A stretch of 64,000 bases of DNA from an uncultured Chitinophagaceae bacterium (GTDB lineage Bacteria > Bacteroidota > Bacteroidia > Chitinophagales > Chitinophagaceae): the NCBI GenBank assembly GCA_964477265.1, contig CAYZDJ010000005.1:158659-222658 (forward strand), given 5' to 3'. Positions 53,990 through 57,616 of this stretch are shown here, in pieces. Position 1 is the stretch's first letter. The number at the start of each line of letters is the position of its first letter. The notes beneath the pieces are model-generated. The model had not been told where the DNA came from. It worked only from the letters and a program-made list of their open reading frames with translations, and searched no databases. The translations under genes and the position numbers were made by a program.

Positions 53990-56900
53990 ATGAAACAGTT
54001 AATTACTTTTTGCTTTTGCCTTTTATCGTTTAACTCTTTAATGGCACAAGGTGTGGGCATAGGCACAACCACCCCAGATAGTAGTGCAGCATTAGATATT
54101 AAGAGTACCAACAAAGGTTTTCTGATGCCCAAAATGACAAAAGTTCAACGCAATGCTATTGCCAACCCTTCTGAAGGATTACAAATTTATCAAACAGATA
54201 GTATCAAAGGTGTATATGTATTTAGCAATGGAGAATGGTGTCCTTTAATGATGCGTTTAGGAAAAAATAAAATTATAAAAGATACTATAAGATTCACCAA
54301 CGCACCAGCCACATTCACCATTCCAAATGCTGTAACCAAAGTGAAAATATATTTGTATGGAGCCAGTGGTGGCAAAGGATTTAGCAGGCACTATCATTTT
54401 GATTCTTGTTTTAGTGTAGCCACAAACGACACCATTCAAAGCACCCCAAATTATGGAGTGGGAGTTGTAGGAGAATTAAGTGTTACCAGTGGTCAGCAAC
54501 TTTTTTTTAATATAGGAGGAAAAGGTAATGATGGCATAACCAGCTATGGCATTATACCAACTGTTAATGGTGGTTACAATAATGGAGGAAGTGCAAACAG
54601 CCAGTTCTTTCCTTACCAAGCTGTAGACATGTGGTGTCCACCAAAAGGGGCTTCTGTTTTTAGGGAAGATAGTCACTACAATTCTGGTGGTGGGGGGGGT
54701 GGATTTTCAAGTGTTGGGTTAGGAAATACCTATAACTATATTTTAACTGCCAATGGGGGCAATGGTGGAGATGGGGTGTCTGTATCAGAATTTGGTGGTA
54801 TTGTATCATCTGGTGGTTTGGCTGTTGGTACTAACTCATACAATAGCCCTGTTACTAATTTCAGTGTTTTGGGTAGCACAAATAGTGGCAATGGCTATGC
54901 AGTGGTAGAATATGAAACAGCATATATTACCGACAATTCTAACTACTTAGATTCTATCTTAAAATCATTAACCAATGGTGCACCTATAATTACAAGTATA
55001 ACTGCAACTTCGCCTTTGCAGGTTACTATGGCTGCCAATACTGCAAACATTTCAATAGCTCAATCTGGTGCTGGTAGCAATGGTATTTTAACCAGTGCAG
55101 ATTGGAATACTTTCAATAACAAGCAATCAGCTTTAAGCAATGCAAACTCAACAACAAGTGGTATTTTAACAAATACTGATTGGAACAACTTTAATAACAA
55201 AGGAACTTTTACACTTCCATCTTTAACAAATGGCAATATAGTTTTTAGCAATGGCAGCACATTAACCCAAAATAATAATTTGTATTTCGATAATGCAAAT
55301 AGTAATTTAGGAATTGGAACAAACTCACCAAATAGTATTAGCAGAGTAACTATAAACAGTGCTAATGTTGGCACAGGCACAAGCAATTGGATTGGTACTA
55401 ATGTAGGTGGTGCAAATGGTGATAGAGTTGTGAGTGGAATACTAAATAGTGAAGCTACAATTGGTGCTCACAACAATAGTTTAACAGCTTGGAGTACATT
55501 AAATATAAATCCTGGTGGCAGCGTTAAGTTTGGTAATTTATCTGGTTCTGGAACAAGAAATTTAGTGGTAGATGCTAATGGTTTAGTAAGCACACAAAAC
55601 ATCACAACATATAGTAATGCCAATGCCACAACAACAGGTTTATTAAGCAATACAGATTGGAATACATTTAACAACAAGCAAACTGCTTTAAGCAATGCTA
55701 ACACAACAACCAATGGCATTTTAACTAGTGCAGACTGGAACGTTTTTAATAACAAATTTTCTTTACCAACCTTAACTGATGGAAGTATTTTATTTAGCAA
55801 CGGCTCAACTATCAGCCAAAACAATAACAAATATTTTTGGGATAATACTAACAATCGTTTAGGTATTGGAACAAACACACCCAACCGAACTTTAACTGTT
55901 AATAGCACCAATAATGGAAGTGGTTATAGCGATTGGATTACAGGAAATTTTGGTGGCACAGCAGGCGATAGAGTGGTAATTGGCAGTGCCAATGGTGAGG
56001 CAGTAATTGGAGCTCACAACAATGCTTTAAATGGCTGGGATACTTTAAATGTAGGAGATGCAGGCAAAGTAAAAATCCCAAGTTTAAGTGGCACAGGTAA
56101 TAGAATGGTAGTTGCAGATGCTACTGGTTTATTAAGTGCACAAGCAATTCCTACTGTTGCAGATAATTTAGGAAATCATACAGCTATTCAAAACATTAAG
56201 TTAAGTAATAATTGGCTAAGCAACACAGGTTCTAACAATGGTATATACATAAAAGACAGTGCAAGTATTGGTATCAATACAAATAACCCACAAGGCTCAT
56301 TTGATGTGTCAAGTTATATTACCAACTACACAGGAAGCTATACTTTAAATTCAAATCCTGCACTTGCTTTTTCATCTGATGGCTCAACAGGTTCTGGTGA
56401 TGCTTTTGATAACAATGCTTTTAATGTATGGATTGCAAATAGTAGCACTTTACCAGTTGCTGTAGGCGAAAACTTTGGTGCAGGCAATGAAAAAATAATA
56501 CGCAAATACATCATCTATTTTCAACCTAACAAAGATGGTGCACCCAACCTTTCAGAGACTTGGACAATAAGCTATCAACTACAAGCAAGTAATGATGCTA
56601 CAAATTGGAATACTTTACACAGCGGTAGTCATAATGCTTACACATCAGATGATCATACAGGTGGTGCTACTTTTAACAATACTACTGCTTACAGATATTA
56701 TAGAATTTTAATTACTCAATTTGAAAGACATGATAACAATTATGGTGGTGGTGCTATTGTAACTACTGGATTAACACCATACATTAACGATGTATGGTTA
56801 TATGAAGAAACCACAACTGGCACTTGGCAAAGTGGAGCATTAGTAGTTAAGCCAAATGGCAATGTAGGCGTAGGAACTACTACACCTACTGCAAACTTTG

Positions 56901-57616
56901 ATGTTACAGGAAGCGTAAGATTACGAAATGGAGCAACCAATAATGCAATTTTAACCAGCGATGCCAATGGTAATGCAAGTTGGAATGCAACACCAAGTAT
57001 TACAGCTACAAATTTATCTGCAACAAATATGGGTGTAGGCACAGCAGCAACCACAGCAAATTCTATTACAACAAGTGGCACAGGTGGTATTAAAGTTTCA
57101 TCTACCAACCCAGGCACAGGCACTACAGATTGGATTGCAAGTAATGTGGGTGGCACAAATGGCGATAGGGTAGTAAGTGGAAATTTAACAGGTAATGCAA
57201 CTATTGGTGCACACAATGCAGCTTTAAATGGATGGAGCGATTTAGTAATAAATAACACTGCTGCTGCTGGTGCTACTGTTACTATTGGCAGTAGTGCCAA
57301 TGCAAATCCATCAAGCACTAATAATACCACCAAGCTAAACACTAAATTGGTTGTTAATGGAAGCATAAGACAAGGTTACTATATAGTGCCAGTAAGCATT
57401 GCAGCCAATAGTGTATCTTACATTACCTGGACACACAATCTTGGCTATGGACCAATAGTAATGATGAGTACAGACCAAAATGGAGGTGGTGGATATATGG
57501 ATTATTGCAATGTAACCACATTTAATAATAATGCCAATGAAACTGTTTTTGTAATTCGCAATACCAATGGCAGTAACACTGCTACTGGCAATTTAAGGTG
57601 GGTATTGGTATGGTAA
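53990..57616 (+). CDS. 1208-aa secreted mosaic protein: N-terminal fibre-like module, glycine-rich domain, 2.5 tail-fibre-like repeats, discoidin (F5/8 type C)-like domain; no recognisable T9SS CTD
   Basis: Signal peptide. [17 protein letters not shown]...QRNAI...GLQIYQTD module. [20 protein letters not shown]...GGKGNDG...GGGGGGF...NGGNGGDG...[10 protein letters not shown] glycine-rich domain. [13 protein letters not shown] motifs. NVWIANSS...[10 protein letters not shown] discoidin-like segment. Confidence 0.8.
   Translation: [1208 protein letters not shown]
55061..56155 (+). repeat. Intragenic tandem repeat, 549 + 546 bp (183 + 182 aa units)
   Basis: Unit 1 is 55061-55609 and unit 2 is 55610-56155. 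Both are in frame and collinear (two [IL]L[ST]xxDWNxFNNK motifs, LGIGTN[ST]PN, GDRVV, IGAHNN, SG[ST]G[TN]R). A third partial copy lies at ~56860-57260. Confidence 0.85.

Follow-up and report, generated by a model that had tools for sequence, protein, structure and literature searches.

What kind of protein does a member of the Bacteroidota export when a mosaic of more than a thousand residues carries no sorting signal for the type IX secretion system (T9SS), in a neighborhood where five other large proteins do? The question is raised by a 64,000-nucleotide (64-kb) stretch of an uncultured Chitinophagaceae genome (assembly GCA_964477265.1, contig CAYZDJ010000005.1, positions 158,659 to 222,658), hereafter the window, in which positions are counted from its first nucleotide. 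An intact open reading frame (ORF) in it, called here the fibre gene, encodes a 1208-residue product, the fibre protein. An initial annotation, made from the sequence alone, had presented this protein as an isolated oddity and had left its route of export open, a point on which we agree. Our analysis makes it somewhat probable, by analogy with characterized fibres, that the product is a Sec-exported, trimeric, glycan-binding surface fibre that is switched by the two-component system encoded beside it.

The domain anatomy of the protein (Table 1) begins with a predicted signal peptide. As the initial annotation had proposed, the N-terminus reads as a basic n-region, a hydrophobic core, and an Ala-Gln junction, the last in agreement with the "Q-rule" for signal peptidase I substrates of Bacteroidetes (PMC5837995). 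The pattern is common to the homologues, of which a word-indexed search found at least 169; the counts given below cover the 120 that were listed. Where the N-terminal module described below stands at the N-terminus of a homologue, a small residue plus Gln directly precedes it in 75 of 82 cases. The database copy of the protein (P0001) starts at internal Met18 of the fibre protein; however, a close relative (P0002) starts MKQLFTFCFCLLCF..., which favors the ATG at 53990 as the genuine start codon. A lipoprotein reading was rejected, as Cys 8 and Cys 10 lie inside the h-region and there is no lipobox. Scans of the whole protein against family models returned little: a sub-threshold F5/8 type C (F5/8C) match in Pfam, nothing in NCBIfam, and a weak "tail protein" match over the discoidin segment in PHROGs. 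Direct sequence searches of the PDB with the whole protein, a divergent glycine-rich sub-profile, a shaft-module profile, and a C-terminal profile gave only noise.

We first consider the C-terminus, where a T9SS C-terminal domain (CTD) would be found. Models of type A (TIGR04183/PF18962), type B (PF13585/CHU_C), and type C (NF033708) CTDs from Pfam and NCBIfam, applied at lax thresholds (E <= 10 or E <= 1), matched neither the fibre C-terminus nor the C-termini of 22 family members. Alignment of the fibre C-terminus with the window's own type A CTDs in hhalign gave a probability of 0.08%, and a cryptic T9SS CTD was rejected on these grounds. Precomputed Pfam lists contained PF18962 or PF13585 for none of the 120 listed homologues, indicating that absence of a T9SS CTD is a trait of the family. 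Elsewhere in the window, five large genes encode T9SS cargo proteins (one with a type B [CHU_C] CTD and four with type A CTDs; domains including Laminin_G_3, DUF7619, FG-GAP/TIG, and IgGFc_binding plus dockerin), from which we conclude that the organism relies heavily on T9SS. The initial annotation was thus correct both in seeing no T9SS signal on the fibre protein and in assigning CTDs to the five others. The 685-aa cargo gene lying downstream proved unrelated to the fibre gene.

In place of a CTD, the fibre protein ends in a domain of ~113 residues, the tip, which occupies the extreme C-terminus in 30 of the listed homologues. Its core is nearly invariant and closes with RW[IV]xV[WNH] (RWVLVW in the fibre protein). 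When 1.84 billion representative proteins were searched exhaustively with its profile, the tip was recovered in 92 clusters only, nearly always exactly at the C-terminus; a few weak matches were internal tandem repeats. Peptidase_S74 (PF13884), an intramolecular chaperone and protease with an SDxxxK motif that forms the end of many relatives, had no match in the fibre protein, whose C-terminus is a different domain. AlphaFold2 (AF2) modeled the last ~85 residues as a six-stranded beta-sandwich (predicted local distance difference test [pLDDT] score of 86 to 96). The leading, weak neighbors of this model in the PDB were tailspike C-terminal domains, the R-pyocin fibre foot, and H-type lectins. 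Against BFVD (predicted viral structures), Foldseek returned seven matches at E <= 1e-3 and many more of ~81 to 87 columns (root-mean-square deviation of ~3 Å) to the terminal parts of Caudovirales proteins, some of them annotated as tail-fibre or minor-tail proteins. In one protein of high G+C content (P0176; 2322 aa), residues ~1500 to 2322 consist of nine tandem tip-profile stretches of ~90 aa with the motif ITWNHNLG...ARIRV; because of these, the fibre tip may belong to a wider superfamily of beta-sandwich repeats.

These features of the tip bear on the first alternative, namely, that the protein is a T9SS cargo after all and that its C-terminal beta-sandwich represents a new, divergent class of CTD read by the machinery that serves the five neighboring cargoes. 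The genome clearly uses T9SS, and the tip nearly always lies at the extreme C-terminus. An ~85-residue beta-sandwich is also of the general fold class of T9SS CTDs, which are 3+4 beta-sandwiches (PMC11285876), and the UniRef cluster containing a divergent relative (P0016) is named "T9SS C-terminal target domain...". Nevertheless, we regard this alternative as improbable. In addition to the unmatched CTD models and the hhalign result, the structural neighbors of the tip are phage fibre and tailspike ends and lectins, with no T9SS CTD among the top 50 PDB matches; domains related to the tip also form tandem arrays in the interior of proteins (up to 9 stretches in a single protein); the tip position is taken in the wider family by many other tips, including self-cleaving S74; and relatives of the shaft are found in phyla that do not have T9SS.

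At the other end of the mature protein, the N-terminal module (aa 22 to 86) belongs to PF26696 (PTL_trimer). This assignment was made from a precomputed PF26696.1 match on P0001, which is identical to the fibre protein from M18 onward, and the module is 45 to 68% identical to other PF26696 proteins (AF2 pLDDT of 76 to 89 across aa ~41 to 90). Of the 120 listed homologues, 95 have PTL_trimer, and in 82 of these it stands right after the signal peptide. A literature search on PTL_trimer, PF26696, and PTL fibres gave no result. According to the initial annotation, the N-terminal module recurs in degenerate form near residue ~956. Although the module itself is real, its recurrence is not: self-BLAST of aa 21 to 90 against aa 950 to 1000 detected no similarity, so a true second N-terminal domain was rejected. 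What recurs is only a short motif, VG[IV]GTxxP..[LF]D[VI], with ~5 occurrences in the protein, and aa 957 to 1011 form a separate shaft module that is common to Bdellovibrionota fibres.

Directly behind PTL_trimer lies a glycine-rich domain of the type found in the receptors ALK and LTK, a claim of the initial annotation that was borne out by remote methods only. PF12810 (ALK_LTK_GRD) did not match the fibre protein directly, either as a whole (E <= 1) or as an isolated segment (E <= 10); it matched 11 of 16 aligned relatives but not the fibre protein itself. An iterative local profile ties the fibre domain to the PF12810-bearing domains of its homologues. In hhalign, a sub-profile of the fibre protein and seven close relatives aligned with six canonical PF12810 domains at a probability of 98.9% (E = 2e-17; 152 columns), and a mixed profile retrieved the ALK and LTK glycine-rich domain (GRD) structures at E ~ 1e-9. 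The AF2 model of aa 21 to 320 (mean pLDDT of 79) retrieved ALK/LTK TG/GRD structures as the top 21 Foldseek matches (E of 1e-5 to 5e-4; probability of 1.0), with template modeling (TM) scores of only 0.25 to 0.38. The next matches were a chain from the tail tip of mycobacteriophage Bxb1 and then the fibre of cyanophage Pam3. Both structures contain glycine-rich bundles of polyproline II (PPII) helices, which have been likened to the S16 gp38 adhesin (PMC13243192). In alignment, the fibre protein and its closest relatives are missing ~80 central columns, a GG-rich insert, of canonical bacterial GRDs, and the motifs F.FTG..QT.TVP.GV...GA.GG.G... and GGGGG are kept. The location of the domain near the N-terminus does not fit the term "head" used initially, as it is not distal.

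The long central part of the protein consists of repeated shaft modules. Windowed self-BLAST aligned residues 361 to 543 collinearly with 546 to 725 (52 to 64% identity) and matched a partial third copy (1012 to 1088) to residues 438 to 507 and 635 to 686 (53 to 63% identity), confirming the tandem repeats noted initially. Within repeat 1, two ~20-aa GILTSxDWNxFNNK units are followed by an LPxLTxGS...LGIGT segment and then by a SxNxGxGxxxWI..GG..GDRVV...ATIGAHN module. Modules of this last type occur in 79 of the 120 listed homologues, the module at aa 941 to 1011 occurs in 45, and the "..N.L" module (aa 726 to 797) occurs in 30, with up to 8 copies per protein; the "..N.L" module is also present in a Hymenobacter "glycine-rich protein" (P0076). 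A shaft-module profile search found no solved relative. Between the shaft modules is inserted a discoidin segment (aa ~798 to 940), likewise foreseen by the initial annotation. PF00754 scored 28.9 bits on the isolated segment (E = 1.3e-6), borderline relative to the gathering threshold of 28.2, and only 23 bits on the whole protein. A family profile built from six sequences matched a GH92 mannosidase module best in the PDB (E = 5e-11), along with chitosanase discoidin domains and CBM32 modules.

The protein is not the isolated oddity it had seemed: the at least 169 homologues are built from the same shuffled modules. Most belong to the Cytophagales and Saprospiraceae (named members include Lacihabitans, Emticicia, Arcicella, and Hymenobacter), and a genome scan added metagenome-assembled genomes of Cytophagales, Saprospiraceae, Chitinophagaceae, and Bacteroidales, the best relatives being 40 to 45% identical. 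In Bdellovibrionota, Patescibacteria, Ignavibacteriota, Chlorobiota, and others, the same scan recovered only the shaft modules. Family members share a plan in which a constant N-domain right behind the signal peptide precedes a shuffled shaft and a C-terminus that varies greatly between members; Peptidase_S74 (PF13884) occurs in ~25 of the 120 that were listed. The N-terminal module stands directly ahead of the GRD in many relatives, at times two or three times per protein, and the PTL_trimer plus GRD pair forms a mobile cassette in relatives. For instance, P0002 has the N-terminal module twice, with the module-plus-GRD cassette near the C-terminus instead of the N-terminus, and P0010 resembles the fibre protein in nothing but the N-terminal cassette and the last 175 aa. 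The P0002 sequence (1828 aa; positions 2884 to 8370 of L086, the nearest relative locus) stops abruptly within a DWNT repeat, with three short ORFs behind it (8654 to 10183), and the gene may be disrupted or mis-assembled in L086.

The fibre gene is directly preceded, on its own strand, by genes for a sensor histidine kinase (HK) and a response regulator (RR) with a LytTR output domain (Table 1), and the order HK, LytTR RR, fibre is identical in L086. Four further loci (L001, L002, L004, and L005) have an HK-RR pair next to the fibre gene, with a 7TMR-DISM or tetratricopeptide repeat (TPR) kinase and a regulator with GerE or LytTR output; further PTL_trimer genes often stand alongside. A tblastn search for receiver (REC) domains placed a regulator within 4 kb in 9 to 10 of 12 loci of near-full-length relatives and only occasionally near distant ones. 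Two-component linkage is thus a property of the close subfamily. In L001 (Lacihabitans sp. CCS-44; 7464 to 19626) and L004 (7445 to 23127), PTL_trimer genes are interleaved with separate 7TMR-DISM kinases, GerE/LytTR regulators, and an apolipoprotein N-acyltransferase-like gene, arrays that look like "one sensor per fibre" units.

Within the 226 bp examined upstream of the fibre ATG is a direct repeat of TTCACCCACC, whose two copies are the only exact ones in the window. Typical LytTR sites are 9-bp repeats separated by a 12- to 13-bp spacer. Downstream of the pair is the box TAGGTTTG, a putative promoter element that agrees with the Bacteroidetes -7 consensus TAnnTTTG. The window and L086 align upstream of the gene over only the last ~107 bp before the ATG, with no alignment farther out; within these, at L086 2790 to 2850, lie the same -7 box and, with one mismatch, the two repeats at unchanged spacing. 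Dimers of LytTR regulators, AgrA among them, bind direct repeats arranged in pairs immediately upstream of the promoter (PMC4227749), and the TTCACCCACC pair is a candidate operator for the adjoining LytTR regulator. A scan for sigma-70 promoters and terminators gave counts near the shuffled expectation, and this promoter type is wrong for the phylum. Two other repeats in the region are not kept in L086: five GTCAT/GTCAA units with 7- to 8-bp spacing at 53762 to 53801, overlapping the end of the response-regulator gene, and two copies of ATTGACTTT with a 15-bp period at 53862 to 53885.

The genomic setting also bears on a second alternative, that the gene belongs to a prophage, a tailocin, or an extracellular contractile injection system (CIS), or to the decaying remnant of one, and encodes its tail fibre or receptor-binding protein. 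The modules and tip fold are phage-like, some relatives end in S74, and the weak PHROGs match was to a tail protein, albeit over the discoidin segment. In addition, a CIS tape-measure gene (CIS_TMP; L002 3868 to 4395) lies ~6 kb upstream of the homologue P0005; the window contains none. Phage and CIS fibres assemble in the cytoplasm; in contrast, the Q-rule Sec signal peptide is kept across the fibre family. The ORF is intact and its two-component linkage is conserved. The neighbors of the fibre gene are housekeeping, T9SS cargo, and two-component system genes, and no phage or CIS structural gene was found in the 64-kb window. Finally, a tblastn search of 50,697 phage genomes gave only three short matches, all to the N-terminal module. 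A prophage or CIS fibre was rejected on the last two findings, and we judge this alternative very unlikely.

TABLE 1 Positions of the fibre gene, its parts, and associated features in the window
Feature	Position	Strand	Basis or remarks
Sensor histidine kinase (TPR repeats + HisKA_2 + HATPase_c)	51036..52958	+	Pfam; first gene of the two-component system
Response regulator (REC + LytTR)	53029..53763	+	Response_reg E = 5e-20, LytTR E = 3e-19; directly upstream of the fibre gene
Direct repeat pair TTCACCCACC-N11-TTCACCCACC (candidate operator)	53892..53922	+	Exact 10-nt copies at 53892 and 53913, 21-bp period
Putative -7-like box TAGGTTTG	53951..53958	+	28 nt after the repeats, 31 nt to the ATG; read from sequence
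Fibre gene ORF	53990..57616	+	ATG start, 1208 aa, intact
Predicted signal peptide, aa 1-19	53990..54046	+	Predicted signal peptidase I cut between A19 and Q20; sequence reading, Q-rule, homologue pattern
PTL_trimer (PF26696), aa 21-88	54050..54253	+	Mature N-terminus; precomputed Pfam match on P0001
Divergent ALK/LTK-type TNF-like/glycine-rich domain, aa ~92-312	54263..54925	+	hhalign, Foldseek, alignment
Shaft repeat 1, aa 361-545	55070..55624	+	Self-BLAST
Shaft repeat 2, aa 546-725	55625..56164	+	52-64% identity to repeat 1
"..N.L" shaft module, aa 726-797	56165..56380	+	Recurrence in homologues
F5/8 type C (discoidin/CBM32-like) module, aa ~798-940	56381..56809	+	PF00754, family profile
Shaft module with GNVGxGT...LTSDAxGxAxW unit, aa 941-1011	56810..57022	+	Recurrence; Peredibacter match
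Partial third "GDRVV...IGAHN" copy, aa 1012-1095	57023..57274	+	Self-BLAST, 53-63% identity
C-terminal domain (tip), aa 1096-1208, and stop codon	57275..57616	+	Family conservation, AF2, Foldseek
T9SS cargo gene	13334-17290		Large cargo
T9SS cargo gene	17394-19739		Large cargo
T9SS cargo gene	22470-24455		Large cargo
T9SS cargo gene	57682-59739		Large cargo
T9SS cargo gene	59944-62724		Large cargo

The fibre protein is rich in Asn (13.9%), Gly (12.1%), Thr (11.9%), and Ser (10.2%), which together make up 48% of its residues, and the G+C content of the gene (37.1%) compares with 32.6% for the window. Three antisense ORFs of 108 to 208 aa on the minus strand (55060 to 55386, 55468 to 55911, and 56740 to 57366) are most likely by-products of this biased composition. 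Just upstream of the histidine kinase gene, on the same strand, a gene at 48428 to 50938 encodes a membrane protein of 836 aa whose C-terminal region resembles YfhO.

How might such a protein work? On the reading that we favor, a fibre protein of ~120 to 125 kDa would be exported by Sec and cleaved by signal peptidase I. It is laid out like a phage tail fibre and, from its N-terminus to its C-terminus, consists of PTL_trimer, a glycine-rich (polyglycine/PPII) TNF-like domain, a shuffled shaft, a CBM32/discoidin lectin, and a beta-sandwich tip. Assembly would be as a homotrimer, by analogy with S74-ended relatives and with the mosaic adhesive trimers (MAT) of Bdellovibrio, since many relatives end in Peptidase_S74 and the shaft modules are common to S74-ended fibres of Bdellovibrionota. 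The fibre would project from the cell surface with its N-terminal end proximal and the lectin and tip distal, and the glycine-rich domain, CBM32 module, and tip beta-sandwich may bind glycans on other cells or particles. Transcription would be turned on by the TPR histidine kinase and LytTR regulator, acting through the TTCACCCACC pair before the -7 box.

Several observations weigh against this picture. We know of no outer-membrane route in Bacteroidota for a 120-kDa non-lipoprotein that has no T9SS CTD. AF2 gave low confidence (pLDDT < 50) for shaft segments modeled as monomers, the partial third copy included, and Foldseek found no PDB match to the tip at E < 1e-3. TTCACCCACC-type direct repeats were not found upstream of more distant homologues (L002, L006, and L007). 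Moreover, the N-domain is a PTL_trimer module of ~65 aa, compared to the beta-rich domain of ~130 aa in MAT. PTL_trimer is also internal in 39 of the listed homologues, and a PTL_trimer-like module lies at the C-terminal end of a hypothetical protein (380 aa) encoded by the Leptolyngbya phage Lbo-JY46 (L085 5062 to 6204). A further copy occurs in an uncultured 735-kb phage (LR756501; 395049 to 395261). In these two phage contexts the module cannot be a cell-anchoring N-terminus. Given the internal copies and the C-terminal place in the cyanophage protein, PTL_trimer may be a trimerization or binding knob instead of a cell anchor.

Some of the same points can be read in favor of a third alternative, in which the protein goes no farther than the periplasm or the inner side of the outer membrane, or else leaves the cell as a soluble factor, a lectin or something toxin-like, and is not a surface-anchored fibre or adhesin. 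With neither a T9SS CTD nor a lipobox, the protein has no known signal for outer-membrane translocation, nothing points to an anchor, and the PTL_trimer module is not confined to N-termini. However, a CBM32 module, a glycine-rich PPII domain, and a beta-sandwich resembling a fibre tip are most easily understood as acting outside the cell, fibre modules totaling more than 1000 residues fit poorly with a periplasmic role, and the architecturally parallel MAT fibres are on the cell surface (PMC10769870). We therefore consider a periplasmic or released product rather unlikely and retain the surface fibre as the preferred reading.

If the fibre protein is such a surface fibre, the mosaic adhesive trimer strategy would not be special to predatory Bdellovibrio but wide among environmental Bacteroidota, with another docking domain. 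It also poses an export puzzle, as a 120-kDa fibre with a Sec signal but neither a T9SS CTD nor a lipobox is encoded in a phylum where T9SS is thought to carry such cargo. More tentatively, Cytophagales, Saprospiraceae, and wider Bacteroidota could possess a T9SS-independent class of phage-fibre-derived trimeric "PTL fibres" with PTL_trimer docking to some envelope or export partner, recombining tips, and one two-component sensor each. Such fibres would be the Bacteroidota counterpart of MAT, with a given adhesin deployed according to an external cue (prey, host, or polysaccharide), and would imply an undescribed route of outer-membrane export or assembly in the phylum. The pairing of the fibre gene with a two-component system and a candidate LytTR operator offers a tractable regulatory model, and an ALK/LTK-type domain in a bacterial fibre offers a setting in which to study polyglycine/PPII ligands and the possible origin of a metazoan receptor domain.

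Comparison with known systems places the fibre protein among several of them. Like the T9SS surface adhesins of Bacteroidota (SprB-type proteins and the five cargoes in the window), it is large, repetitive, and Sec-exported and has lectin-like modules. Unlike them, it and the 120 listed homologues have no type A, B, or C CTD, and its modules are phage-fibre-like rather than of the Ig, cadherin, or FG-GAP type. Its glycine-rich domain resembles the TG domain of ALK/LTK (PF12810; PDB 7LRZ, 7N00, and 7NX1) in remote homology through canonical bacterial GRDs, in fold retrieval, and in shared motifs. It differs in having no direct Pfam match, in missing the ~80-residue central glycine-rich insert, and in its low TM-scores; furthermore, its context is a bacterial fibre rather than a receptor tyrosine kinase, and nothing in the protein points to a cytokine-type ligand. 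With phage fibres and tailspikes (S74-ended, R-type pyocin, and S16 gp38-like tips) it shares a modular design, a distal beta-sandwich of the tailspike/pyocin type, a glycine-rich PPII-type domain (as in the Bxb1 and Pam3 structures), and relatives with PF13884. In contrast to phage fibres, it has a Sec signal peptide, a chromosomal non-phage setting, and no S74 domain.

The closest characterized analogue is the MAT family of Bdellovibrio, because shaft modules are common to the fibre protein and to S74-ended fibres of Bdellovibrio and Peredibacter. MAT fibres have a signal peptide followed by a conserved N-domain, an intertwined trimeric fibre, and variable adhesive tips; they comprise S74 and non-S74 subfamilies and are displayed on the surface of the predator, and one of them binds glycans of the prey (Caulton et al., 2024; PMC10769870). 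The fibre protein likewise has a constant N-domain behind the signal peptide, a long phage-like fibre, and swappable C-terminal tips, and its family shows the same S74/non-S74 split. Its DWNxFNNK and GNVGIGT...LTSDAxGxAxW shaft units recur in S74-ended Bdellovibrionota fibres (2044 and 2260 aa; from Peredibacter and Bdellovibrio), which are not confirmed as published MAT proteins. In BLASTP, the fibre protein and the Peredibacter fibre share 32% identity across 324 aa (E = 9e-20), and the ~50-aa GNVGxGT...LTSDAxGxAxW unit is 48 to 52% identical to repeated modules of that fibre. The initial statement that no characterized protein combines such features thus needs revision, as the overall design is also that of MAT fibres, and some of the shaft modules recur in related Bdellovibrionota fibres.

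Nevertheless, we do not file the fibre protein as a MAT member, because the N-terminal domains are unrelated: BLASTP found no match between its N-terminus and those of the Peredibacter and Bdellovibrio fibres. PDB searches with the whole protein and with the shaft-module and C-terminal profiles did not match solved MAT chains. The fibre organism belongs to another phylum, with nothing pointing to a predatory lifestyle, and its protein adds an ALK/LTK-type glycine-rich domain, a CBM32 module, a tip with no solved relative, and an adjoining two-component system. Nor is it a routine member of a characterized adhesin or phage tail-fibre family. The Bacteroidota fibre family is itself uncharacterized and is set apart from MAT by a distinct N-domain, a rare tip, tight coupling to two-component systems, and unexplained export in a T9SS-rich genome. 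However, its recognizable parts (PTL_trimer, ALK_LTK_GRD, F5/8C, and phage-like shafts and tips) are of known kinds, and a functional analogue has already been characterized. By design, the fibre protein probably works like MAT.

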